Origin: a candidate division FCPU426 bacterium
Lineage (GTDB): Bacteria > Oederibacteriota > PGYV01 > Palsa-1178
DNA length: 64,000 bases
NCBI GenBank assembly: GCA_963840035.1
Contig: CAWIXE010000002.1
Span: 192,001 to 256,000 of the forward strand
Direction: 5' to 3'
A model generated the notes under the pieces. The model did no database searches. It was given only the letters and a program-made list of their open reading frames with translations, and was not told the origin of the DNA. Positions within the stretch are counted from its first letter, which is position 1, and every line of letters starts with the position of its first letter. Positions 3,769 through 51,859 of this stretch are shown here, in pieces. A program made the position numbers and the translations under genes.

Positions 3769-4572
3769 ATGAAAAAGACAATACTGGCCATCGTACTGGC
3801 AATGTGCTGCGCCACGGCCTGGGCATCCCTGTTCCAGGGCGAAATAGGCCTTGAAATGTACGGCGGGTACAGCTTTACCGCCCTGAAAAACTTCAATGAT
3901 AATTTTGTCAATGTATTTAATTACGGCTATCTGGAAGGGTATGCCGCACCGAAGGACGCCGCAGCCATACCGGGGATACTTGAAGCAGACCTGAAAATAA
4001 GATATTGCGCGGCGCCGGCGCTTCCTTTATATCTGAGGCTGGGATTAACGCGGCTTGTGGATACTGAAATATTAACCAATACATCAACAGGCAAGGATAT
4101 AGCCGCATCAGTGGCCAGTTTTAACATGGCTTATGCCGGAGCCGGGGCAAAATACGGATTCAGGCTTTCAAGGGCGTTTACGCTTCTAATAGGAGCTGAC
4201 GCGGGATTATACATACCGGTGGCCAGTTTTTGGGAAGTAACCGGAAACATATCCCAGACCCCGCCGGTAAATAATAATATATCAGACCCGTTATATAACG
4301 CGTCCCAAAGGATAGATTTTACGGACATATACTTCGGCGGAAACGCCGGGGCCGGGGTTGAATGGGCGATTACAGACTCGTGGGGAGTCACTATAGAAGG
4401 CGGATACAGGTTCGCAAAAGCGCCGCTGACATACAGGAAAAAAGGAATTTTCGCGAGGGATTCTTTTAACCTCAAGGAACTCGATTTCTCAGGCCCGTAT
4501 TTAACGGGCGGGCTGGTGTTGTATTTTGACGGCAGAAGCGCCGTGGAAATACAAAAAAGGAGCAGGATATGA
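3769..4572 (+). CDS. Outer-membrane beta-barrel protein (small, ~8-strand type)
   Basis: Signal peptide (..ATAWA); alternating strands (AYAGAGAKYGF, FGGNAGAGVEW, WGVTIEGGYRF, GPYLTGGLVLYF); ATGA overlap with next gene. Confidence 0.7.
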   Translation: MKKTILAIVLAMCCATAWASLFQGEIGLEMYGGYSFTALKNFNDNFVNVFNYGYLEGYAAPKDAAAIPGILEADLKIRYCAAPALPLYLRLGLTRLVDTEILTNTSTGKDIAASVASFNMAYAGAGAKYGFRLSRAFTLLIGADAGLYIPVASFWEVTGNISQTPPVNNNISDPLYNASQRIDFTDIYFGGNAGAGVEWAITDSWGVTIEGGYRFAKAPLTYRKKGIFARDSFNLKELDFSGPYLTGGLVLYFDGRSAVEIQKRSRI

Positions 4573-6824
4573 AAAAACAATATTTATTAGCCGCTGTTTT
4601 GGCAGTGCTTATTATTCTGACAGGGACTTCCTGCTCCAAGAGGAGAAACGTGCACCCCGTGGGGCCCGGTGATATTTATACGGCCACATGTACCCCTGCA
4701 ATTTCCACCGCTACTTATACGGTTACACGGACAAATACGCCTTTGCCTCCTACAGGCACAAGGACAAATACACCGGTGCCGCCAACATCAACCTTCACAA
4801 GGACAGCCACGGCCACGGCAATAATACCTTCCGCAACTTTAACGCCTTCTTATACTGAAACCATAATTGTGCCGAGCGCCACAGACACACCCGTATACAG
4901 CCCTACAAACACGCCTTCTGTGACTCCGACGCTTACAGATACGCCGGTCTATAGCCCGACAATTACGCCGACCGCGACCATGACTTTTACGGACACGCCG
5001 GTTGTTTCGCACACTTCAACACGCACGGCAACATTTACAGCGACGGTTACTATTACTCATTCGGCGACACCGACTCACACGCCCACTCCTGTTGCCACGC
5101 CGACATTTACCGCGACAACACCGTCCGCGGCAGTGATTATTTATGACGGCGATACCGCCGGCACCAGGCTCGCTGACGGCGCAGTTACAAATGACGGGGC
5201 AGGGACCATGACTGAAACTGCCGGAGGAAACCCCGGGAATATGATGAGGCTTACATATGTAAACGCGGCTTGGTGGCAGCAGCATGAATGGAACAAGACT
5301 GACAATGTGGATATCGGCGCCAACACATACCTTGTATTCGATGTAAAACTGGATGCGGCAAGCGCGAACCCTGAAAAGCAGCTTAAGGTCAGGATAGACT
5401 GGGGTACAGGGCTTGATGTTTTTGTCGCGAATTTCCTGGTGGAAGGCGGGATAATAACCACGGCCTGGAAGACCGTGAAGATAGCGATCGCGGATATTAA
5501 AGGCGCGGCGCAGACGCAGATAGATTTTATAGCATTCATCGGCAATACTGACATAAATTACACTGTGGATATTGACAATATAAGGCTTGAAGGTTCAGTG
5601 CCGTCTCCTTCGCCAACCTTTACAATTACGACAAACCCGGCCTGGTCGCCGACTGTTTCGCCGACTATCACGCCGACGAGCGCGTGGAACCATCCGGGCG
5701 CGTGGTCTTCAGCGGCGGAGCTGGCGTTTGTAAAAGGGCGGATCGCGGCGAATGCCCAGCCATGGACGCAGGAGCTTTCAAATCTAACGGGGCAGACAGG
5801 CGGCGCCGCTTCAGGAGTGAATTTTAACGGCGTAGTGCAGAATTCCTGCACTCAGGAAGGGTCTGTCCAGACAGACTCGGCGCTTGTTTACGCCAACGCG
5901 CTCGCGTGGTACTTAACAGGCACGCAGTCGTATTACACCAAAGCCATGACCATACTTAATAATTACGCAAGCTCGCCCGCTTCATGCATACAGGGATTCC
6001 AGTCCACCGGCTGTTTTGCCGGGCAGTCCATACTGAATGCCTCGTGGTTCGGCGTGCTTTTCGCCAACGCGTGCGAACTTTTACGCACAAGCCCGAGCTG
6101 GACTGCGAATGATACGGCCAGGTTTGTAAACATGTTTAAGACAGGATTTTATCCGAAGTTAAATACCATGAGCCCTGACAACGGGAATATTGATTTGACC
6201 CAGATAGACGCCATGTTTTCCATGGCCGTCTTCTGCGAGGACCAGGCTGAGTGGGACCTGGCAGTGTCCAGATACAAGGCCAGGATGCCGGCGGCGTTTA
6301 TTGATTCCACATGGACAGGCGTCCCGGGGGTTGGCAAACCGGCTTCCCTCGGAAATGTAAATACAAATAACTGCGGAGGCGCCTCCTCTCCGCCTGTGGA
6401 TTTCTGGTACTGCCCGACATCGTGGGCCGCGGGGCTGCAGCAGGAGACGTGCAGGGATTTGGGACACCATACGCAGTTTGCCCTCGATGCGGCAGTGGAC
6501 TGCGCCGAGATAGATTACCATCAGGGAAGCCCGGACGCGCTTTACGCGTCATACCAGACTATGCTGGTGCCGGCCCTTGAACTGCTGGCGCGGCAATTTG
6601 TCACAGCCACCACCTGCGGCGTCTGTTCGGGAACCTGGCCCGCCGGGCAGCAGAAACTCATAATGTTTGAGGAAGGCTACAACCATTACGCAAACCGCAT
6701 GGGCCTGGGCGCTTCCTTAACCAATACCGGCGCGTGGATAACCACCTCGCGCGCCAATGGCGGCGCCACCCGGCTCCAGTTTAACATAGCTTTTGAGACG
6801 CTCACGCACGCGGGAGTGAACTGA
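4569..6824 (+). CDS. Lipoprotein: Thr/Pro stalk + CBM-like beta-sandwich + alginate-lyase-family-like catalytic domain
   Basis: Lipobox-like LTGTSC; IYDGDT...IDNIRL module; HPG...QPW, NGNIDL and QETCRDLGHH motifs resembling alginate lyase family alpha/alpha proteins. Confidence 0.65.
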   Translation: MKKQYLLAAVLAVLIILTGTSCSKRRNVHPVGPGDIYTATCTPAISTATYTVTRTNTPLPPTGTRTNTPVPPTSTFTRTATATAIIPSATLTPSYTETIIVPSATDTPVYSPTNTPSVTPTLTDTPVYSPTITPTATMTFTDTPVVSHTSTRTATFTATVTITHSATPTHTPTPVATPTFTATTPSAAVIIYDGDTAGTRLADGAVTNDGAGTMTETAGGNPGNMMRLTYVNAAWWQQHEWNKTDNVDIGANTYLVFDVKLDAASANPEKQLKVRIDWGTGLDVFVANFLVEGGIITTAWKTVKIAIADIKGAAQTQIDFIAFIGNTDINYTVDIDNIRLEGSVPSPSPTFTITTNPAWSPTVSPTITPTSAWNHPGAWSSAAELAFVKGRIAANAQPWTQELSNLTGQTGGAASGVNFNGVVQNSCTQEGSVQTDSALVYANALAWYLTGTQSYYTKAMTILNNYASSPASCIQGFQSTGCFAGQSILNASWFGVLFANACELLRTSPSWTANDTARFVNMFKTGFYPKLNTMSPDNGNIDLTQIDAMFSMAVFCEDQAEWDLAVSRYKARMPAAFIDSTWTGVPGVGKPASLGNVNTNNCGGASSPPVDFWYCPTSWAAGLQQETCRDLGHHTQFALDAAVDCAEIDYHQGSPDALYASYQTMLVPALELLARQFVTATTCGVCSGTWPAGQQKLIMFEEGYNHYANRMGLGASLTNTGAWITTSRANGGATRLQFNIAFETLTHAGVN

Positions 6825-29826: not shown

Positions 29827-29855
29827 GGAACTTCCATCCTGTATAAAACGTCTAA
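29827..29855 (+). promoter_or_regulatory. ECF (RpoE/sigmaE-like) promoter upstream of tolC-macAB
   Basis: GGAACTT-16-GTCTAA; a sigma70-like TTGACA(29883)...TATAGT(29905) follows. Confidence 0.65.
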
Positions 29856-29958
29856 CATTATATAAACTGAAAGTTAAAACACTTGACAAGTTGTTTTTTT
29901 GTGATATAGTTAGGTTGTCTAACAATTAGGAAAATTAAGTATAACAAGGCGGTCCGAA

Positions 29959-34509: not shown

Positions 34510-36913
34510 ATGACTGAAGTAGCAGCACAGGCAGTTACACAAACTGTCGCAGTCGCAGCCGAAGTTGTCACAAAGGCAGCCGAGCACATTAAACTTGCTC
34601 CGCTCACGTCTTTTGAGAACCTGGCGCTGTGGGTAGTCTGGGGCACGTCCTTACTCGCCCTGGTTTATGGTTTTTACTTGATGGCCGAGATCCTCGGCAA
34701 GTCAAGGGGAACCCAGAAAATGATCGAGATCAACGCGGAAATCAAGAAGGGCGCAAAAGCTTACTTGATCAGGCAGTTTTCAACCATCATCTGGCTCGTT
34801 CTCGGATTGATGGCGGTATTGTATTTCACCACGGTTGTAGACCCGTCACTCGGGTACTCGCCGGAACAGATGCTGAAGATCAAGATCGGAAGGGCGCTCG
34901 CGTTCTTCCTCGGAGCCCTGGCTTCGGCAGTAACAGGAACAGTCGGAATGCTCTTAGCCGTTGAAGGTAATGTAAGGGTAGCGGCAGGCGCGGTAGCAAA
35001 AGGAAAGAAAGAAGCTTTAACAATAGCGTTCAGGACAGGTTCCATCGCCGGAATGTTCACCATCGGCCTTGGCCTTCTCGGCGCAACTTCGATATTCTTA
35101 ATATTCCAGACTGAAGCTTCAGCCATCTCTGACGTTCTCGTCGGATTCGGCTTCGGCGGATGCCTGCTCGCTCTCTTTATGAGGGTCGGCGGCGGAATAT
35201 TCACAAAGGCAGCGGACGTTGGAGCTGACCTCGTAGGAAAAGTTGAAAAGAACATACCGGAAGATGATCCCCGCAATGCAGCGACGATCGCCGATAACGT
35301 TGGAGACAACGTGGGCGACTGCGCAGGCATGGCCGCGGACATTTTCGAGTCATACGAAGTAACGCTCGTTGCCGCCATGATACTCGGCGCGACAGTGTTT
35401 GGAAACATGGGAGTTATCTTCCCGCTGTTTGTCCGTGCCGTCGGAGTTATCGCTTCGATCATCGGAACATACGCAGTAGTTTCAAAGAGCGAAGAAGAGC
35501 ACGCGATGAAGCCGATTCAGAGGGGCTTCTGGCTTGCTTCAGTACTTTCCATCGTCGGCTTCGGTATCATCACGGTTATGTACCTGATACCCGCAATCGG
35601 CGAATGGATGGCCAAGAAACCGGAACTGTTCGCGGGCTCGCCTGCAAACGGCGCCACGATCCTCGGCTGGAAACTTTTCATCATCACCACGGTCGGTATT
35701 ATCCTCTCGTTCCTCATCTCACAGATGACGGAACACTTCACCACAACAGAGGCTAAGCCGGTCCAGGACATAGTAAAATCAACGCTCACAGGCCCTGCGA
35801 CAGTTATCCTCGCGGGAACCGCTGAAGGCTTAGAATCATCGGTATGGGCGATCATTTCAATCGCCGTATCGCTGGCGGTATCGATCCTGGTATTTGCCAT
35901 AATGCCGGTGGGAACAGCGGCGGCAATCACCATGCAGACCCTTTACGGAATAGCTTTAATCGGACTTGGAATGCTCACAGTTACAGGTATCATCGTTTCC
36001 GAAGACACATTCGGGCCGGTATCTGACAACGCGCAGGGCATCGGCGAGATGGCAAAGCTTCCGGAAAAAGGACGCAAAGTGCTTGATGAGCTCGACGCAG
36101 TAGGAAATTCCACAAAAGCAATCACCAAGGGATTCGCGATCGCGACAGCCGTTATCGCTGCCGTATCGCTTTTCGCTTCATTTAACGAAGTAACAGGCGT
36201 GCCGTTCATCAATCTTCTCAAGCCCGATAGTTTTCATCGGCTTGTTAATCGGCGGCGCGGTACCGTTCCTCTTCTCGTCACTTCTTATCCGTGCCGTTGG
36301 AAGGGCAGCGTTCCTGGTTGTTAACGAAGTAAGAAGGCAGTTCAAGGAAATCAAGGGCCTGATGTCCGGCAAAGCTAAACCTGAGTCGGCAAAGGTTGTT
36401 GATATCTGCACAGCAGCGGCGCTGAAAGAACTCGTTTCACCCGCATTGCTCGCGATCCTTATGCCTGTTGCGATTGGCTTCCTGTTCAAGGCTGAAGGCC
36501 TTGGCGGATACCTCGCGGGCGTAATCCTCGTGGGACAGCTTATGGCTGTATATCTCAGCAACGCCGGCGGCGCGTGGGATAATGCCAAGAAATCCGTCGA
36601 ACAGATGGGCTTCAAAGGCACAGACAGGCATAAAGCGGCGGTCATCGGCGACACAGTCGGCGACCCGTTCAAAGACACAGCAGGACCGGCGTTAAACCCG
36701 CTCATCAAGGTCATGAACCTTGTTGCGCTGCTTATCGCCCCGATACTCGTCAGCCCGGCTTTCACAGGCGCGAACGCGTACAGCTGGCCCGTTATTGCGG
36801 TGGTAGTTGTATGCCTCGGAGTTATTGCCTGGGGACTTATGATGTCAAAAAGGGAAGATGAGACATCGGAAAAGATAGCTGAAGAAGTAGCTGCGAAGAA
36901 TAAGAAGAAATAA
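34510..36913 (+). pseudogene. hppA: Membrane H+-translocating pyrophosphatase, K+-independent type, split by a single-base insertion (possibly a sequencing error)
   Basis: [43 protein letters not shown]. The second frame carries GGAWDNAKK and GDTVGDPFKDTAGP. Removing one C from CCC at 36223-36225 restores ...[18 protein letters not shown]. Confidence 0.9.
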
Positions 36914-37392: not shown

Positions 37393-37890
37393 TGTCATTG
37401 CGAGGAGCCGTTTTAGCCTTGTGGTGACGAAGCAATCTCGGTTTCATCGATAAGACTTAAGCATAGTCCTGCATAAGAACAGAGATTGCTTCGTCGCTGA
37501 GGGGATTGCTCCTCGCAATGACAGGCAAACAAAGATAAGCTTCAAACTGTTTAAGATTGTCATTGATGGCTGATTCTGTCATTGCGAGGAGGCGTTCTTG
37601 ATTTATGCCGACGAAGCAATCCCAGTTCCACCGATAAGCCTTACAACAAAGTACCTGCATAAGAACAGAGATTGCTTCGTCGCTGAGGGGCGCGCTCCTC
37701 GCAATGACAGGCAAACAAAGATAAGCCTTACAACAAAGTGCCTGCATAAGAACAGAGATTGCTTCGTCGCTGAGGAGCTCGCTCCTCGCAATGACAGGCA
37801 AACAAAGATAAGCCTTACAACAAAGTGCCTGCATAAGAACAGAGATTGCTTCGTCGCTGAGGAGCTCGCTCCTCGCAATGACAGGCAAAC
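37393..37890. repeat. Cluster of six TGTCATTGCGAG REP-like elements: two inverted doublets, the second extended into three tandem 87-bp units
   Basis: Forward copies at 37393 and 37577; reverse copies ending 37523, 37709, ~37796 and ~37883; tandem units start at 37633, 37720 and 37807. Confidence 0.92.
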
Positions 37891-37915
37891 ATAAAAAAAC
37901 AACAGGAGAAAAACA

Positions 37916-41771: not shown

Positions 41772-42314
41772 ATGAAAAGATTGGTATTATTATCTGTATT
41801 TGCATTTGCAACATCCATGGCTTTTTGCGCGACGGACGAGGCTAAGGCTGAGGCTTCGGCTCAGGAGACGGTTACAGCGGGGCAGATAAAGGCCGTTAAG
41901 AACTTCTCACCTGAGGAAAAGGCTGAGGTAAAGGGCGTAATAGTAGAGAAAATCAAGGCTATAATTGACGAGAAAAAGGAAGTAAAGACAAAGAAAATAT
42001 CAAAAAAATACATCAAGATATCCAAAAAACTTTTTGAAAAATCAGCCCTTGAGCTGAAAAACGGCGAGACAGCACAGGCCACGGTAACAGCGGGCGAGGC
42101 GCAGGCTGAAGCGACAAAAGAAGCCGCGGCAGACTCTGTTACGGCAAAAGAAAAGAAGGCAAAGAGCGCCAAAATAGCAAAAGAAGAGATAAAACAGGAC
42201 TTAAAGGCAGTAAATGAGGAGATTCAGGAACGTAAGGATATAAATAAGGAAATTAAAGCGGGAACAATCGAAGATATGAGCGGAACGCCTCCGTCGGACG
42301 TAAAGAAAAAATAG
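41772..42314 (+). CDS. Secreted Lys/Glu/Ala-rich low-complexity protein (paralog of 43223)
   Basis: AGGAGG RBS; signal peptide MKRLVLLSVFAFATSMAFCA; shared ~35-aa motif with 43223. Confidence 0.8.
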   Translation: MKRLVLLSVFAFATSMAFCATDEAKAEASAQETVTAGQIKAVKNFSPEEKAEVKGVIVEKIKAIIDEKKEVKTKKISKKYIKISKKLFEKSALELKNGETAQATVTAGEAQAEATKEAAADSVTAKEKKAKSAKIAKEEIKQDLKAVNEEIQERKDINKEIKAGTIEDMSGTPPSDVKKK

Positions 42315-42343
42315 CGTTTTAACAGATAACAGGGCTGCTTGTG

Positions 42344-42385
42344 GAAGCAGGCCCCTTAAAAGGGGCCTGCTTCTTTAATTTTTTC
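42344..42385 (+). terminator. Rho-independent terminator
   Basis: gaagcaggcccct-taaa-aggggcctgcttc + T-rich tail. Confidence 0.85.
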
Positions 42386-42673
42386 CTCCGGCAAATATTT
42401 TTTATCATTTCCATGCGATGACACCGCGCCGCGCCGGACTTGATTTTTCGCGGGGCATATGGTATATCATCTTTAAGGGTTGTGCAAAATGCCCGCCCGG
42501 ATGGCCGATGAAAAATTCCGGGCGCAGGGAACTCACTCAAACTGTCTAAAATTCTCCCTTAATAGCCTAAAATATACGTTTGCCTTGACTGCACAGCCCG
42601 GTTTTTGCCGTTTAAATTTATTGCGGGGAGGTGGGAATCTGTAAGGGCTGCAGTAAAAAAAAGGGAGGAAGAC

Positions 42674-43210
42674 ATGAAGAAAATTCCAATGCTTTTTTTT
42701 GTGTTTGTGCTGGTTTTATTTTGCGCTTCGGCATATGTCGCGGCGGCTGACAGGCAATGGGCGGACGCGTGGCAGGGAGTGCCGTGGAGTGATGATAAAA
42801 CGGACAGGATGATGGACAAAATGCGCGTGGATTTTGACTCGCTGTTAAAGGACTCCTTTAAGCCTGAGATGAACGCGCAGGCAGGTTTTCCGGTGAATGT
42901 CTGGGATGACAAGGAGAACATTTATGTGGAGGCAACAGTGCCTGGCCGGGAACTGAAGGATATATCGGTCAATGTCGAGGACGGGCGGGTGCTGACCATC
43001 GAGGCAAAAGGCAGGAACAAGGAAGAGGAAAAAAGCAGGAATTTTTACAGGGCGGAGTTTTTTGTGGGGGACCTGGTAAGGCAGGTGCAGCTTCCATATC
43101 TCGTGGATACAGCCGGGACAGCGGCGAAATACGAGAACGGAATACTCAAATTGACGCTGCCTAAAAAAGAGAAACTGGAAAAAAGCAAGATAAAAATTGA
43201 AATAAAATAA
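42674..43210 (+). CDS. Hsp20/alpha-crystallin small heat-shock protein with N-terminal signal peptide
   Basis: FPVNVWDDKENIYVEATVPG...DISV; AKYENGILKLTLPK; C-terminal IEIK (IxI); N-terminus MKKIPMLFFVFVLVLFCASAYVAAA. Confidence 0.9.
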   Translation: MKKIPMLFFVFVLVLFCASAYVAAADRQWADAWQGVPWSDDKTDRMMDKMRVDFDSLLKDSFKPEMNAQAGFPVNVWDDKENIYVEATVPGRELKDISVNVEDGRVLTIEAKGRNKEEEKSRNFYRAEFFVGDLVRQVQLPYLVDTAGTAAKYENGILKLTLPKKEKLEKSKIKIEIK

Positions 43211-43222
43211 AAGGGGGAATTC

Positions 43223-43774
43223 ATGAAAAAGATTATTGTGTTGCTGGCGCTGGTTTTCGTTTCAGCTTTAGGATTGCAGGCTGCCATGGAAACTAAGGCG
43301 GCTGAAAGCGCGGAAAAGGCTGTTGTGGCCGGGGATGTTAAGGAAGTAAAGACCGTGACCGCGGCGGAAAAGACGGAGATGAAGGCTGCCGCGCAGGAAA
43401 AGGCTTTGGCAGGGAAAGAAAAAAAGCAGGCTTTAAAAGACGAGGCTAAGGCAAAGATGGAAAAGAGGCTCTCCTCAAAACTTTTTAAGAAGTCGAAACT
43501 GGAGCTGAAAAAAGGCGAGACAGCGCAGGCTACTGTCACAGCCGGCGAAGCTCAGGCTGAAGCCACAAAGGAAGCCATAGAAGACTCCAAAGCCGCGGAG
43601 GAACTCAAGGTATCTGCGGAGGATAAGGTGAAATCCGCTGAAGACATGAAAGCCGCGGAAATGGAAAAAGCCGAGGCAAAGAAACTTAAAAAAGGGATAA
43701 AAGCCACTGAAACTGAGGAAGCGGGCGAAACAAAAGAACAGGAAATGAAGGAAAAGGACGAGTATAAAAAATAA
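43223..43774 (+). CDS. Secreted Lys/Glu/Ala-rich low-complexity protein (paralog of 41772)
   Basis: Signal peptide MKKIIVLLALVFVSALGLQA; KLFKKSKLELKKGETAQATVTAGEAQAEATKEA. Confidence 0.8.
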   Translation: MKKIIVLLALVFVSALGLQAAMETKAAESAEKAVVAGDVKEVKTVTAAEKTEMKAAAQEKALAGKEKKQALKDEAKAKMEKRLSSKLFKKSKLELKKGETAQATVTAGEAQAEATKEAIEDSKAAEELKVSAEDKVKSAEDMKAAEMEKAEAKKLKKGIKATETEEAGETKEQEMKEKDEYKK

Positions 43775-43787
43775 GGCGTATTGGCCT

Positions 43788-43823
43788 ATAACGGGCTCCC
43801 CTGCGGGGAGCCCGTTATTTTTT
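43788..43823 (+). terminator. Rho-independent terminator
   Basis: ataacgggctcccc-tgc-ggggagcccgttat + T-tract. Confidence 0.85.
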
Positions 43824-43860
43824 AGGGCCGTTTGAACGGCCATAGTATCAAGGAAAATTT

Positions 43861-43888
43861 GAACAAACGGCCGGATATAAGCGTCTAA
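43861..43888 (+). promoter_or_regulatory. Candidate ECF (sigmaE-like) promoter upstream of second TolC
   Basis: GAACAA-16-GTCTAA, same geometry as 29827. Confidence 0.5.
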
Positions 43889-43994
43889 TATCTGCATTTA
43901 TAAATATTCCATACATATCCGCCTGTATTGATTGTTGTCCGGGCCTGTGATATCATAATAAACGTTCTAAAAACCAATTAAGGCGGTATGAAAA

Positions 43995-45408: not shown

Positions 45409-48400
45409 ATGACCCTCTCAGACCTTTCAATAAAGAACCCGGTTTTAGCCTGGATGATCTTCATCGGCGTGCTGGTATTCGGCGCCATATCTTACTACGG
45501 CATGGGCGTATCACAGATGCCTGATGTGGATTTTCCTCAGTTGTCCGTTTCCACCAGCTGGCCGGGCGCTTCGCCTGAAGCAGTAGAGTCCACCATTACT
45601 GACTCGCTTGAGCAGTCCATTTTGGGCGTTGAAGGCGTTACTGAGATTACGTCCTCCTCGAGCAGGGGGCGCTCTTCCATTACCATTCAGTTTGACTTAA
45701 ACCGGAACATTGACGTGGCTTTGCAGGATCTGCAGGCAAAGCTGGCAAATGCCGCGCATGAACTGCCGGACGACGTGGAACTGCCGACGATCAGCAAGAG
45801 GAATTCGGACTCATCACCCATAATGTGGATTGCCATATCAGGCAACAAGACCCCCAAGTATATAATGGAATACACGCGCGACCACTTGAAGGACGCCTTT
45901 ACCACCATACCGGGAGTGGCGGAAATATTCATGGGCGGCTACCGCGAACCCGTGTTCCGCGTGTGGCTCGACCCGAAAGCCATGAAACAAAAGGAAATAC
46001 TTGTTGACGATATCGTCACAGCCATTAATACGGGCCATAAGGAAGTGCCAGCGGGCTATGTGGATACTGGCATAAAGGAAATAAACATAAGGGTCCCGGG
46101 CGAGGCCGGCACTGTCGAGGAATTCTCCTCCATTATAATACCCTCGCGCAAAGGCTCTTCCATGTGGAAGCCTTTCAAGATAGGCGATGTGGCCCTGGTA
46201 GAAGACGGGCTTGAGGATATAAGGGGCTACGCGCGTTCAAACGGCGACCCCGCGGTGGGCCTGGGAGTCTTAAAACAGCCCGGCACAAACTCCATAGAAG
46301 TGGCAAAAAATATAAAAAAGAAAATCGCCGCGCTGCAGAAAGAGCTGCCAGAGGGCATGAAAATGCAGGTGCGTTTTGACGCCACGCAGTTCGTGGAAGA
46401 GTCGTCAAAGGAAATGAACAACATCATAATCCTCTCTGTCATACTTACATCGCTGGTATGCTGGCTCTTTTTAGGGTCCTTTGGCTCGGCTGTTAATGTC
46501 TTTTTAACCATTCCCATGTCCATATTCGGCTCGTTTTTTGTCATGAGGATCATGGGCTTCACCTTAAATACGTTCACGTTCCTCGCGCTTACGCTAGTTA
46601 TAGGCATAGTAGTGGACGACGCCATCATGATGATTGAAAATATCACGAGGCACAGGGAAGCTGGCGAGAATAAAGTGCGCGCGGCCATCAAAGGCGCGCG
46701 GGAAATAACCTTCGCGGCAATTGCCGCCACCGTGGCCATACTTGCCATATTCATACCCGTTATATTCATGAAAGGCGTCATAGGCAGGTACTTCTTCCAG
46801 TTCGGCGTGACCATATCGGTTGCCGTGGTATTTTCACTGCTGGGCGCGCTGACCTTGACTCCCATGTACGCGGCTCAGTTCCTTCCTGCCCTTCATAAGA
46901 CCGGGAAAAAGCCGTTCATGGAAACGTTTATGGACAACTTCAGGGACTGGTATAAAAAAGTGCTGAAGGTCTGCCTTGAAAACAGGTGGAAAGTCGTTAT
47001 AGCCGCGCTTGTGTTTTTTGCCGTATCAATGGTATTTGCCGTGCTTGTTAAAAGGGAGTTCGTGCCGTCCATGGACGTGGGTGTCATAAACATAAACATC
47101 AGGACCGCGCCGGGTTCTTCCATAACTTACACAAATAACGTAATGCTTGAGGCGGAAAAAATTGTGTCGCAGAGGAAGGATATATCAGCGTATTTTGCCA
47201 ACGTGGGCGGCTGGTCCACCAGCGTTTCTGTCACCATGTTTGACTTAAATAAAAGGCCGAAGGACCCGAAGAAAAAAAGGCCGCTGACACAGCAGGAGAT
47301 ATCCACGGAACTCAGGAATTCGTTAAAGGCGGTAAAAGGCGTTGTGGCTGTTTCCATACAGGACATGTCACAGTCAGGCTTCACAGCCCGCCGCGGATTT
47401 CCCATAGAATTTACCCTGATGGGCCCCAACTGGGACAAGCTCATAGAATTAAGCGCCATGCTGACAACGGAAATGGAGAAGACAGGATATATGGTTGACG
47501 CTGACACGGATTACAGGCCGGGCGTTAATGAGGAAGTAGTAAAGCCTGACAGGAAAAAACTTTTTGAGCGCGGTCTGACCATAGACACGGTCTCAACCGC
47601 CATAAATGCCTTATACGGCGGCATCACAGCCGGAAAATTCACAAAAAACGGAAAGCGTTACGACATAAAAGTCCAGCTCGACCCGACAAAGAGGATGGAC
47701 TTAAACGACTTAAAAAATATAATGGTAAGGAACAGCCGCGGAGAGCTCATACGCTTAGGCGAGGTAATAACCATGTCAGAAGAGCCCACGGTTAACTCAA
47801 TAACCCGCCTTAACAGGCAGAGGGCTATCAGGATATCAGCCAATATCGCGCCGGGCAAGGCGCAGGGCGACGCCATGAAAGAAGTGGAAAAGCTGGCAAA
47901 GACGCTGCCTGAGGGTTATGTTACGGCATTCACCGGAAGCTCGCAGACATTCCAGGAGTCATTCAGCAGCCTGGGCATGGTGCTATTGCTGGGTATCTTT
48001 GTGGCGTACATGGTATTAGGCTCGCAGTTTAACAGTTTTGTCCATCCGATATCCGTATTAATGGCATTACCATTCTCCGCCTCAGGCGCGTTCATCGCGC
48101 TGTTTTTAAGCGGGAAGACATTAAATATTTACAGCGCCATAGGCCTGATACTTTTAATGGGCATAGTAAAAAAGAACTCGATTTTGCTTGTTGATTTTAC
48201 CAATCAACGAAGGGAAGAAGGGCTAAGTGTGAAGGATGCGCTATTATCAGCGTGCCCTGTAAGGCTGCGCCCCATCATAATGACCTCGGTGTCCACAATA
48301 GCCGCGGCCATCCCGCCCGCGCTTGCCATGGGAATGGGAGCGGAAACGCGCGTGCCCATGTCAATCGTGGTCATAGGCGGAGTGTTGTTCTCAACGTTCC

Positions 48401-48531
48401 TAACGCTCTTCGTGGTCCCGTGCGTTTACAGCCTGCTGTCAAACCTGGAAAGCAAAGCGCACCAGCAGGAAGTGCATGATGCGATGAAGGAACTGGCAGT
48501 AATCGAGGGGCCGGTAAAAAAGAAGAAGTGA
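45409..48531 (+). CDS. RND efflux permease (AcrB/MdtB-C-like)
   Basis: MPDVDFP, GIVVDDAIMMIENI, GIVKKNSILLVDF, RLRPIIMT. Confidence 0.95.
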   Translation: MTLSDLSIKNPVLAWMIFIGVLVFGAISYYGMGVSQMPDVDFPQLSVSTSWPGASPEAVESTITDSLEQSILGVEGVTEITSSSSRGRSSITIQFDLNRNIDVALQDLQAKLANAAHELPDDVELPTISKRNSDSSPIMWIAISGNKTPKYIMEYTRDHLKDAFTTIPGVAEIFMGGYREPVFRVWLDPKAMKQKEILVDDIVTAINTGHKEVPAGYVDTGIKEINIRVPGEAGTVEEFSSIIIPSRKGSSMWKPFKIGDVALVEDGLEDIRGYARSNGDPAVGLGVLKQPGTNSIEVAKNIKKKIAALQKELPEGMKMQVRFDATQFVEESSKEMNNIIILSVILTSLVCWLFLGSFGSAVNVFLTIPMSIFGSFFVMRIMGFTLNTFTFLALTLVIGIVVDDAIMMIENITRHREAGENKVRAAIKGAREITFAAIAATVAILAIFIPVIFMKGVIGRYFFQFGVTISVAVVFSLLGALTLTPMYAAQFLPALHKTGKKPFMETFMDNFRDWYKKVLKVCLENRWKVVIAALVFFAVSMVFAVLVKREFVPSMDVGVININIRTAPGSSITYTNNVMLEAEKIVSQRKDISAYFANVGGWSTSVSVTMFDLNKRPKDPKKKRPLTQQEISTELRNSLKAVKGVVAVSIQDMSQSGFTARRGFPIEFTLMGPNWDKLIELSAMLTTEMEKTGYMVDADTDYRPGVNEEVVKPDRKKLFERGLTIDTVSTAINALYGGITAGKFTKNGKRYDIKVQLDPTKRMDLNDLKNIMVRNSRGELIRLGEVITMSEEPTVNSITRLNRQRAIRISANIAPGKAQGDAMKEVEKLAKTLPEGYVTAFTGSSQTFQESFSSLGMVLLLGIFVAYMVLGSQFNSFVHPISVLMALPFSASGAFIALFLSGKTLNIYSAIGLILLMGIVKKNSILLVDFTNQRREEGLSVKDALLSACPVRLRPIIMTSVSTIAAAIPPALAMGMGAETRVPMSIVVIGGVLFSTFLTLFVVPCVYSLLSNLESKAHQQEVHDAMKELAVIEGPVKKKK

Positions 48532-48745
48532 ACGTTAGGCTCAAAGCTCAAGCGGAAGCAGGAAGCGTGCGGGCTCAAGCGCTCAAGGGGTTGTTTGGCT
48601 TTTGTAGGCTGCATCCCCTTAATCCGTTTTAAGGCCACGCTCAGTTGATTATTTGATATTAATCTGCTATATTTATATAAGCTAATCATACTTGTCCGAC
48701 AAAATCCGGCTAAAAAATACTATATTCCTTTAAAAAGGAGTTACC

Positions 48746-51700
48746 ATGACCTTATCCGATTCTTCCATCCGTAATCCCGTGATGGCGTGGATGATACTTA
48801 TCGGTATTATCGTATTCGGGGCCATATCTTACTCGGGGCTGGGAAAGTCGCAGATGCCTGACGTGGACTTTCCCGTGCTTACCGTCTCCATAGACTGGCC
48901 CGGCGCTTCGCCTGATGTCGTGGAGACCCAGGTAACGGACGCTGTTGAAGGCGCGGTCATAGGCATAGACGGGGTAAAAGAAATTACATCGTCGTCCACA
49001 AGGGGCAATTCCAGCGTCACCATCCAGTTCGGCCTGGACAAGAACATAGACGTGGCCCTCCAGGAAGTGCAGTCAAAGCTCGCCTCAGCCGCGCGCAACC
49101 TGCCCATAGATATTTTCCCGGCGATCATATCCAAATCAAACCCGGATGACGCGCCCATACTGTGGCTGGCGTTTTCCGGGAACCGGCCCGACCAGTTCCT
49201 CATGGAATACACGAAGAACTACTTAAGCGACGCGTTTGCATCTGTGCCGGGCGTGGCATCTGTCTTCCTCGGGGGATATTTGAATCCTTCGCTGCGGGTG
49301 TGGCTGGACCCGGTGAAAATGGACAAAGAGGAGATCACCACCGACGACGTTTTAAACGCCATATCCACGGGCCACGACGAGGTGCCTGCGGGGTTCCTGG
49401 ATAACGGGGTCAGGGAAACAAGCATCAGGCTGCTGGGGGAGGCGGCCACTGTGGATGAATTCAAGTCCATAGTGATACCTTTCAGGAAAGGCGCCATCAT
49501 ATACAAGAATATAAAGATAGGCGATGTGGCGCGAGTGGAAGAGGGGTTGGAGGATACGACCCGCATGGCAAGGACGCCCGAGGGCCGGGCAGTGGGGCTG
49601 GGCATCAGGAAGCAGCCGGGATCGAACGCGGTGGCGGTGGCGCACGCGGTAAAGGCCAGGGTAAAGGAACTCCAGAAAGGCCTTCCCGAGGGCACGCAGC
49701 TTGACGTGCGCTTTGACACCACAAAATTCATAGAAGACTCCTCTAACGATATGAACGGTGTCATCATTTTATCCGTCCTGCTTACGGCGCTCGTGTGCTG
49801 GCTCTTCCTGGGGACATTTACCACGGCCCTGAACGTGTCGCTGACCATACCCATGTCCATATTCGGCGCCTTTTTTGTCATTAAGGCGTTCGGTTTCACC
49901 CTCAATACATTTACGTTCCTGGGATTATCCCTTGTTATCGGCATAGTCGTGGACGACGCCATCATGATGGTGGAGAACATATCCAGGCACAGGGAAAATA
50001 AGGAGTCAAAGGTTAAAGCCGCGGTCAGGGGGGCACGCGAGATTACATTTGCCGCTGTGGCAGCGACCATGGCCATACTGGCGATATTTCTGCCGGTCAT
50101 ATTCATGCCCGGTGTCATAGGAAGGTATTTTTTCCAGTTCGGTGTGACCATATCCGCGGCAGTGCTCATATCCCTGCTGGGCGCGCTGACCATAACGCCG
50201 ATGTTCGCTTCGCTGTATATGCCGGCGCCGGCGCAGGGCGGCAAAAAGAAGCCGTTCATGGATGTGGCCATGGATAAGCTGAGGGCCGGATACCATGAGG
50301 TCCTGAAAGTATGCCTGAAAAACAGGTGGAAGGTGATATTCGCTTCGTTTCTGGTTTTTGCCGTGTCTATGACACTGTTTTTCTTCGTCAAAAAGGAATT
50401 CGTGCCCGCCCAGGACCAGGCGCGGCTTTCGGTGAATATTCAGACCCCGCCGGGGTCGGCTTTTAAGTTTACGGACGGGGTATTCAGGGAAGCGGAAAAA
50501 ATAGTGGCGGCCAGGCCCGAGGTGGACGGATATTTTTCCATCATCGGTTTCGGCAGCTCGAATTCCGGCGCCATAAATATAGTTTTCAAGGACAAAAAGG
50601 TCAGGCCAAAGGACCCCGCAACCGGCAGGGTGTTAAAACAGATGGAGATAGCAAATGTGCTAAGAAAAGAGCTTAAAAAGGTGCCCGGCTTAAAGACCGT
50701 GACCATGATAGACCCATCGCTGCAGGGCTTTACCGCGAAAAGGGGATATCCGGTGGAATTCATGCTCATGGGCCCGGACTGGGACAAGCTGGCGGAACTG
50801 GCGGCATCCATGACGGATGACATGGAAAAGTCGGGATACATGGTGGACGCTGACTCGGATTACAAGCTCGGCGTGACAGAGGCGCTGGTAAAGCCCGACA
50901 GAAAAAAGGCGGCGGTGCGGGGAGTCAACATGTCCACCATCGGCAATGCCCTTAATGCCTCGTACGGCGGGTTAAAATACGGCAAGTACACAAAGGAAGG
51001 CAAGCGCTTTGACGTGACTGTGGAGCTTGAAAAGCAGGACAGGACCGACATAAACAGCATACTTAATTCATACGTGAGGAACAACGACGGCGAGCTGGTA
51101 AAGCTCGCGCACGTGGTGAGCGTGGAGGAAAAGCCTTCGCTGACTTCGATTACAAGGGAGAACAGGGAAAGGGCGGTCAGGCTCTTTGCCAATGTCGCGC
51201 CCGGCAAGTCGCAGGGTGAGGCGCTCGACGAGGTGGAAAAGCTGGGGGCGAAACTTCCGGAGGGTTACAGGATATTCCTGGTAGGCTCGTCGCAGAGCTT
51301 CAAGGATTCAAACCTGACCCTTATCATCGCGCTGATACTCGGTATCTTTGTGTCATACATGGTCCTGGGCACGCAGTTTAACTCCTTTGTCCACCCCATA
51401 TCGGTGCTAATCGCGCTGCCCTTTTCCGTAACCGGCGCGTTCATAGCGCTTTACTTAAGCGGCCAGACCCTGAATATATACAGCATCATAGGGCTGATAC
51501 TGCTCATGGGCATAGTAAAAAAGAACTCCATACTTCTCGTGGATTTTACCAACCAGCGCCGGAGGGCAGGGATGAAAGTGGAGCAGGCGCTGCTCGAAGC
51601 CTGCCCCATAAGGCTAAGGCCCATACTCATGACATCGGCCGCGACGATTGCCGCGGCCATACCGCCGGCGCTCTCTTTGGGGCCGGGCGCGGAAACCAGG

Positions 51701-51859
51701 GTGCCCATGGCCGTGGTGGTCATAGGAGGAGTATTTTTCTCCACGCTGCTGACGCTCTTTGTGGTGCCATGCGTGTACAGTTTGTTATCAAGCATTGAAA
51801 GCAAGACACATGAAAAGGAAGTGCATGATGCAATGAAAGAGATAGAGGGGAGTCAGTAA
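48746..51859 (+). CDS. RND efflux permease, close paralog of 45409
   Basis: Same motifs (GIVVDDAIMMVENI, VKKNSILLVDF, RLRPILMT); collinear over the full length. Confidence 0.95.
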   Translation: MTLSDSSIRNPVMAWMILIGIIVFGAISYSGLGKSQMPDVDFPVLTVSIDWPGASPDVVETQVTDAVEGAVIGIDGVKEITSSSTRGNSSVTIQFGLDKNIDVALQEVQSKLASAARNLPIDIFPAIISKSNPDDAPILWLAFSGNRPDQFLMEYTKNYLSDAFASVPGVASVFLGGYLNPSLRVWLDPVKMDKEEITTDDVLNAISTGHDEVPAGFLDNGVRETSIRLLGEAATVDEFKSIVIPFRKGAIIYKNIKIGDVARVEEGLEDTTRMARTPEGRAVGLGIRKQPGSNAVAVAHAVKARVKELQKGLPEGTQLDVRFDTTKFIEDSSNDMNGVIILSVLLTALVCWLFLGTFTTALNVSLTIPMSIFGAFFVIKAFGFTLNTFTFLGLSLVIGIVVDDAIMMVENISRHRENKESKVKAAVRGAREITFAAVAATMAILAIFLPVIFMPGVIGRYFFQFGVTISAAVLISLLGALTITPMFASLYMPAPAQGGKKKPFMDVAMDKLRAGYHEVLKVCLKNRWKVIFASFLVFAVSMTLFFFVKKEFVPAQDQARLSVNIQTPPGSAFKFTDGVFREAEKIVAARPEVDGYFSIIGFGSSNSGAINIVFKDKKVRPKDPATGRVLKQMEIANVLRKELKKVPGLKTVTMIDPSLQGFTAKRGYPVEFMLMGPDWDKLAELAASMTDDMEKSGYMVDADSDYKLGVTEALVKPDRKKAAVRGVNMSTIGNALNASYGGLKYGKYTKEGKRFDVTVELEKQDRTDINSILNSYVRNNDGELVKLAHVVSVEEKPSLTSITRENRERAVRLFANVAPGKSQGEALDEVEKLGAKLPEGYRIFLVGSSQSFKDSNLTLIIALILGIFVSYMVLGTQFNSFVHPISVLIALPFSVTGAFIALYLSGQTLNIYSIIGLILLMGIVKKNSILLVDFTNQRRRAGMKVEQALLEACPIRLRPILMTSAATIAAAIPPALSLGPGAETRVPMAVVVIGGVFFSTLLTLFVVPCVYSLLSSIESKTHEKEVHDAMKEIEGSQ

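Follow-up and report, generated by a model that had tools for sequence, protein, structure and literature searches.

A small heat shock protein with a predicted Sec signal peptide, encoded between two KEA-rich proteins of predicted export in a candidate division FCPU426 bacterium

Do small heat shock proteins (sHSPs) of bacteria also work outside the cytoplasm, and if so, with which partners? The question is raised by a locus in the window analyzed here, a 64,000-nucleotide stretch of a contig from a candidate division FCPU426 bacterium. On the forward strand, to which all parts of this locus belong, the gene hsp20 (42674 to 43210), encoding a 178-amino-acid sHSP (PF00011) with a Sec-type signal, lies between KEA1 (41772 to 42314) and KEA2 (43223 to 43774). 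The latter genes encode signal-peptide proteins of 180 and 183 amino acids, whose mature parts consist of 51% (KEA1, predicted helical or disordered) and 62% (KEA2) lysine, glutamate, and alanine (K+E+A). The initial annotation had proposed a periplasmic chaperone module in which an exported sHSP works with LEA/Asr-like partners; the exported sHSP is supported by the results below, whereas the partner module is not.

The start of hsp20 was placed at ATG 42674, which is preceded at a distance of 5 nucleotides by a GGGAGGA ribosome-binding site (42663 to 42669) complementary to the 3' end of the 16S rRNA of the host genome. The public gene call (P0004, 201 amino acids) begins at an in-frame TTG (42605) 23 codons earlier, where no comparable ribosome site is present. 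Sec signals were called by a heuristic rule (basic n-region, uncharged h-region, small residues at positions -3 and -1, and no lipobox), not by SignalP. Under this rule, Hsp20 is assigned a Sec/SPase I signal peptide spanning residues 1 to approximately 24 (42674 to 42745), with two lysines, an uncharged 11-residue stretch with a mean hydropathy of 3.4, small residues at the likely cleavage site, and possible cleavage after residue 20, 23, or 24. The strong ribosome-binding site and the Sec-type signal of the initial annotation are confirmed. The n-region is positively charged and the 18 residues past the cleavage site have a net charge of -2 to -4, a pattern which fits an N-in/C-out orientation. 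No lipobox was found in the signals of the three members of the subfamily described below or in the Omnitrophota-type sequences scanned.

A search of 5.8 billion proteins returned, among the 120 matches listed, two full-length relatives of the window Hsp20, P0005 (60% identity) and P0006 (54% identity). A signal check on orthologs had been proposed; by the heuristic rule, both relatives keep the signal, which is thus found in all three subfamily members compared with none of the 117 ordinary relatives that make up the remaining matches listed. Across the three members, the signal keeps only 4 of its 24 positions unchanged, the N-terminal region 13 of 48, and the domain 53 of 92, as one would expect if the first segment were a signal peptide. 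The subfamily is small: a search of 1.84 billion representatives turned up a single cluster above E 1e-30, and none of 98 further genomes from the phylum contained a match at the ortholog level. A plasmid search gave 14 matches, all to the domain only, and a search of sequencing runs listed no RNA run and one DNA run, which yielded four short pieces and has no bearing on expression. The nearest clusters in the Atlas are longer-than-usual Hsp20s of 164 to 211 amino acids from Omnitrophota, Campylobacterota, and Pseudomonadota, among which the sequences of Omnitrophota were the ones examined.

A cytoplasmic product, arising from the internal start MMDKM or from anchoring with the domain facing inward, has to be weighed against export. 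Met50 is shared by all three members, and a second, shorter product is possible. However, Met46, Met47, and Met50 have no comparable ribosome site, and W33, W38, S39, and D44, all of which precede MMDKM, are invariant across the three members, which argues against MMDKM as the sole start. In addition, the charge pattern favors N-in/C-out, the signal methionine of the ortholog at locus L031 is the first methionine of its frame, and the genome already has another Hsp20 gene, which is ordinary and cytoplasmic. A start downstream of the hydrophobic segment had been named beforehand as the finding that would overturn the initial proposal, and with the upstream residues invariant it is not borne out. 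We consider a cytoplasmic product highly improbable and, judging from these sequence features, export of Hsp20 in some form very likely. The host cell is a diderm, with genes for BamA, LpxC, and two signal peptidases I (Peptidase_S26) scoring over the cutoff, and its genome also encodes DegP.

Beyond the signal, Hsp20 retains the features of a chaperone. The alpha-crystallin domain with its tail (residues 76 to 178; 42899 to 43207) matches Pfam HSP20 (PF00011) with an E value of 7e-17 and 61.8 bits versus a cutoff of 20.8, and the protein scores far under the NCBIfam cutoffs for Hsp18, Hsp14, and Hsp20. The predicted structure consists of an N-terminal helix and a beta-sandwich (mean pLDDT, 75; loop and tail poorly resolved), and only sHSP structures were among the Foldseek matches listed for this model. 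The best solved-structure sequence matches are pea Hsp18.1 and Xylella HspA, and a profile built jointly from both signal-bearing groups reaches an E value of 4e-25 to 5ds2. As in cytoplasmic sHSPs, the N-terminal helix is amphipathic (residues 44 to 62; 42803 to 42859); it spans residues 40 to 61 in the model, with a hydrophobic moment of 1.1 to 1.5 compared with 1.7 in a cytoplasmic relative. A C-terminal IxI-type motif is present at residues 173 to 177 (43190 to 43204), and IxI-like tails occur in 122 of 123 signal-group sequences, the window protein included. The PG motif and the second conserved arginine (R136) are also retained. The canonical bacterial cytoplasmic sHSP (IbpA/HspA type) is defined in part by having no export signal, and in this respect the window Hsp20 falls outside that type. 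The intact alpha-crystallin fold, the N-terminal helix, and the IxI tail make a periplasmic holdase the best reading, and we regard it as probable that Hsp20 would be exported by Sec, cleaved by SPase I, and able to hold clients in the periplasm without ATP, with oligomers and client hand-off to match.

The exported domain might alternatively have been repurposed as a constitutive scaffold or a single-client chaperone rather than a general holdase. Where sHSPs usually have an E-R pair, ahead of the second half of the domain, all three subfamily members have E-F, a change specific to this subfamily that, judged from sequence, may alter dimer or client binding, while the arginine of the pair is present in 116 of the 120 Omnitrophota-type matches listed. 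Repurposing would also accord with the long stem branches of both signal-bearing groups (0.8 to 1.1 changes per column), with the fixed, housekeeping-like context of the Omnitrophota genes, which is not a stress island, and with the finding that no match to a CIRCE consensus, with up to 3 substitutions allowed, was found anywhere in the genome. However, the amphipathic helix, the PG motif, R136, and the IxI tail have all been kept, and repurposing appears quite improbable.

Signal-bearing Hsp20s recur in Omnitrophota. Of 150 matches listed from 401 Omnitrophota genomes (there were 159 further ones), 13 run stop-free from model position 1, and 16 of 20 loci chosen for long matches carry a ribosome site, a signal, and Hsp20. 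The joint profile, composed of 16 Omnitrophota and the three own-type Hsp20 sequences, detected 17 of the 401 genomes at an E value of 1e-40, with 16 being its own rows. Among the best 120 database matches listed for this profile, 118 have a signal by the heuristic rule, compared with 0 of 117 ordinary relatives, although this count leans on a profile that itself contains signals. A single cysteine is present in the mature part of 114 of the 120 Omnitrophota-type matches listed; the mature part of the window subfamily is without cysteine. The proteins are short and should be expressible in Escherichia coli with their own signals. The genes recurring beside the 16 Omnitrophota loci are ones that we take to be EF-P-like (12 loci), HI0933-like (10 loci), and TonB-receptor-like (8 loci), and the exported hsp20 (L113 to L126, L130, and L132) usually lies directly before the EF-P-like gene and after TonB-receptor-like genes.

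If the signal stayed uncleaved, it would hold the sHSP on the periplasmic side of the inner membrane, where the protein could act on membrane proteins or lipids. The h-region of the window protein is long and rich in phenylalanine, with the high hydropathy given above, and longer Hsp20s whose N terminus bears a hydrophobic segment, apparently an anchor, do exist (the second gene of L127 at 5539 to 6312, L129 at 4318 to 4992, P0321, and P0348); besides the L127 and L129 genes, 3 of 149 representatives are of this form. Against a tether, a small-residue cleavage motif directly follows the h-region and is followed by polar acidic sequence in the three subfamily members and in 118 of the 120 Omnitrophota-type matches listed, which leaves a lasting tether rather unlikely. 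One of the four long forms has two tandem domains, and the long forms adjoin ordinary Hsp20 genes.

Whether the two signal-bearing groups share one origin was addressed with trees restricted to the C-terminal 112 residues. In these, the groups each form a clade of their own (support, 100/100). In a 35-row tree, the window group is nested among cytoplasmic Omnitrophota-type proteins (99/99), and a joint clade of both signal groups is rejected with an AU p value of 0.026, the test having been chosen after the first tree. With 78 rows, the nesting does not reach the starred level of support and the test no longer rejects a joint clade (AU p, 0.18). A one-residue insertion is common to the three own-type sequences and 118 of the 120 Omnitrophota-type sequences listed and is missing from all 48 cytoplasmic tree rows that could be scored (12 others were unscored), while 12 of 134 scorable representatives have it. 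This shared insertion points the opposite way to the rejection at 35 rows. Around the insertion (window 42974 to 43006), the sequence aligns without gaps to the class I protein Hsp18.1 of pea, which is the best match among solved structures.

The neighbors of hsp20 were described in the initial annotation as secreted, charged, and paralogous proteins sharing a block, which their sequences bear out. Both carry predicted signals, and KEA1 and KEA2 are paralogs with 48% identity over 127 amino acids (E value, 4e-29). The block covers residues 84 to 118 in each protein (42021 to 42125 in KEA1 and 43472 to 43576 in KEA2) and is nearly invariant in four aligned members of a family of which five sequences are known. 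Proteins of this composition are rare, with only 6 of 526 signal-bearing open reading frames (ORFs) in the genome reaching 45% K+E+A. KEA1 matches no known family, no full-length KEA match was found in 98 other genomes of the phylum, and an Atlas search with the homolog P0125 gave no score above 0.79. Two weak profile matches in relatives cover the N-terminal part only and belong to unrelated proteins. In a genome of the same family, several short exported proteins rich in K/A are encoded in a row (L051:1110 to 2040); they are similar in type but unrelated to the KEA block.

The KEA proteins resemble group 3 LEA proteins and E. coli Asr in general character: all are exported, of low complexity, highly charged, and predicted to be disordered or helical (FoldIndex of the KEA proteins, <0). 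No LEA family was among the 16 weak Pfam matches of the KEA proteins at E values up to 10, and a clear 11-residue repeat is lacking (lag-11 z, 0.7 to 2.4, similar to lag 7), with only a weak helical periodicity; an assignment to group 3 LEA was therefore rejected. Asr is a strongly basic protein, whereas the KEA proteins have a net charge of 0 to +5 over approximately 160 residues and are near-neutral polyampholytes. With neither a sequence match nor a comparable charge, Asr was likewise rejected, and the LEA/Asr-like character first ascribed to these proteins is not upheld. The AlphaFold model of KEA2 is uninformative (pLDDT, 59; pTM, 0.22). E. coli Asr itself is described in PMC10746267.

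The layout of the locus bears on whether the KEA proteins are partners of the sHSP. KEA1 and hsp20 are separated by 359 nucleotides, which include a terminator-like hairpin (42343 to 42374) of 14 pairs, 9 of them G-C, with a T tail. The gap between hsp20 and KEA2 is 12 nucleotides (43211 to 43222), exactly as first annotated, and has no terminator; a second terminator-like hairpin (43788 to 43818) closes this unit before tolC. The hairpins after KEA1 and KEA2 indicate that the likely transcription units are KEA1 alone and hsp20-KEA2, and KEA2 is probably cotranscribed with hsp20. The order hppA-ychF-tolC is conserved in 8 of 9 relatives, the ninth ending at a contig edge, and their ychF-tolC gap of 0.2 to 1.8 kb contains none of the three genes. 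In the window, the same interval measures 5 kb and houses the KEA1-hsp20-KEA2 block, an insertion specific to this lineage, which indicates that closeness to the efflux genes reflects the insertion site. Elsewhere in this region, the gene for a membrane pyrophosphatase (34510 to 36913) is broken into two reading frames and is a single ORF of approximately 800 amino acids in 7 of 8 relatives, so that the split is likely an assembly frameshift or a recent pseudogene. Tandem near-repeats of approximately 80 nucleotides, resembling the REP type, lie at 37457 to 37894 past a gene that is presumably GIY-YIG-like, and two tandem RND transporter genes with no adaptor gene between them follow tolC (45409 to 51859).

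An exported sHSP working with both KEA proteins as dedicated disordered cochaperones would be consistent with the 12-nucleotide, terminator-free junction to KEA2, with the exported type of all three proteins and the rarity of KEA-rich exported proteins in the genome, and with the lack of both families in the same 98 phylum genomes. P0006, P0124, and P0125 are on contigs of 0.8 to 2.3 kb, and linkage may exist in close kin. However, no KEA homolog occurs near signal-bearing hsp20 at any of 17 other loci (16 in Omnitrophota and L031), a check that spanned up to 5 to 8 kb a side with some flanks cut by contig ends; at L031, none lies within 8 kb. Moreover, a terminator separates KEA1 from hsp20, no sigmaE-like promoter is shared, and the block is missing in 8 relatives. 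The three-gene module is accordingly unsupported, and dedicated cochaperones are unlikely. The two KEA neighbors are probably not required partners of this chaperone type, and the pair most likely reflects a local duplication, within the same insert, of an unrelated protein that is charged and exported.

The sigmaE-like promoters that had been associated with the neighboring efflux genes are present before both efflux clusters (29827 to 29857 and 43860 to 43890). The second box belongs to the tolC/RND genes that follow it; being placed past the terminator, it is outside the hsp20-KEA2 unit. Across the genome there are 9 such boxes at a spacer of 16, compared with 0 to 5 at other spacers, and they precede bamA, an ECF sigma factor gene, a DnaJ-like gene, and both tolC genes, as well as genes that we assume to be Spy-like and SurA/PrsA-like. 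In 4 relatives, the box is also seen between ychF and tolC. The best matrix scores upstream of KEA1 and hsp20 are -2.3 and 3.0, compared with 22 to 26 at the nine training sites, and control of KEA1, hsp20, and KEA2 by such a box was rejected, there being none with a 16-nucleotide spacer. That hsp20 lacks the box which marks bamA and other envelope genes counts against an envelope role. A sigmaE-like two-part element 5' of hsp20 (42528 to 42549), found by motif search, has a spacer 7 nucleotides too short and is the only match in the genome at that shorter spacer. It is probably not a working promoter and may be a decayed promoter, an assembly slip, or a chance match.

As a periplasmic holdase, Hsp20 would be exported by Sec and cleaved by SPase I to a mature chain of approximately 154 residues, which would assemble into dimers and larger oligomers and bind unfolding envelope proteins without ATP. 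Since DnaK and ClpB do not occur outside the cytoplasm, clients would be freed slowly or passed to periplasmic folding factors or the DegP protease. The link between DegP and Hsp20 comes from one locus, L031, which alone among the ortholog loci has long flanks and is of the same lineage as the window (DegP, 63% identical). There, degP lies two genes 5' of the hsp20 ortholog on the same strand, and the other upstream neighbor encodes a LysM protein. The surrounding region (L031:4717 to 15352) resembles an envelope stress locus, with a protease-CBS gene, degP, and genes for the LysM protein, GGDEF proteins, and a 521-amino-acid multi-BON (OsmY-like) protein. In the window's own genome, degP sits on another contig. 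A bolder reading, which we find doubtful, holds that bacteria moved sHSPs across the inner membrane repeatedly, in soluble and anchored forms, giving rise to a so far undescribed branch of periplasmic quality control in which clients are freed without ATP, and that in this lineage a dedicated family of helical charged partners was acquired that would perform the release step of Hsp70.

Cytoplasmic prokaryotic and plant class I sHSPs (PF00011; 5ds2, 5j7n, 1gme, and 1shs) share the alpha-crystallin domain, the N-terminal helix, and the IxI tail with the window Hsp20, which differs in adding a Sec-type signal and approximately 20 residues after it and would lack an Hsp70/Hsp100 partner to free its clients. 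The ER of eukaryotes contains ATP and Hsp70, and the periplasm contains neither, which sets the sHSPs of the plant ER apart. These are otherwise alike in being signal-bearing sHSPs of an extracytoplasmic compartment, as exemplified by PvNod22, which has a cleavable signal, oligomerizes, and keeps a target from unfolding under heat (PMC9783675). A plant 22.0-kDa class IV cluster is also found among the Atlas look-alikes of Hsp20 (score, 0.84), which is a lead only. HdeA/HdeB, Skp, and Spy occupy the same compartment and have the same role as is predicted here, the ATP-free holding of clients, but their folds are unrelated to that of Hsp20; they are named as periplasmic ATP-independent chaperones in the accessible portion of PMC4516975, which names no sHSP among them. 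Bacterial sHSPs are treated as cytoplasmic holdases needing ATP-driven chaperones for client release in the excerpt available of PMC9783675, and the corresponding excerpts of PMC4585668 and PMC5216662 deal with stress-induced Hsp20s with no mention of export. A literature search, mostly of openly accessible texts without supplements, where localization predictions may appear, found no exported bacterial sHSP. The protein described here is thus apparently a recurrent exported sHSP that is undescribed in the literature searched, with plant ER sHSPs as the known analogue. The public gene call, by starting 23 codons early, hides the signal, which indicates that the exported class may be undercounted. 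If true, a soluble periplasmic sHSP would extend envelope quality control by a further fold, and how an sHSP frees its clients without an ATP-dependent partner would become a directly testable question.
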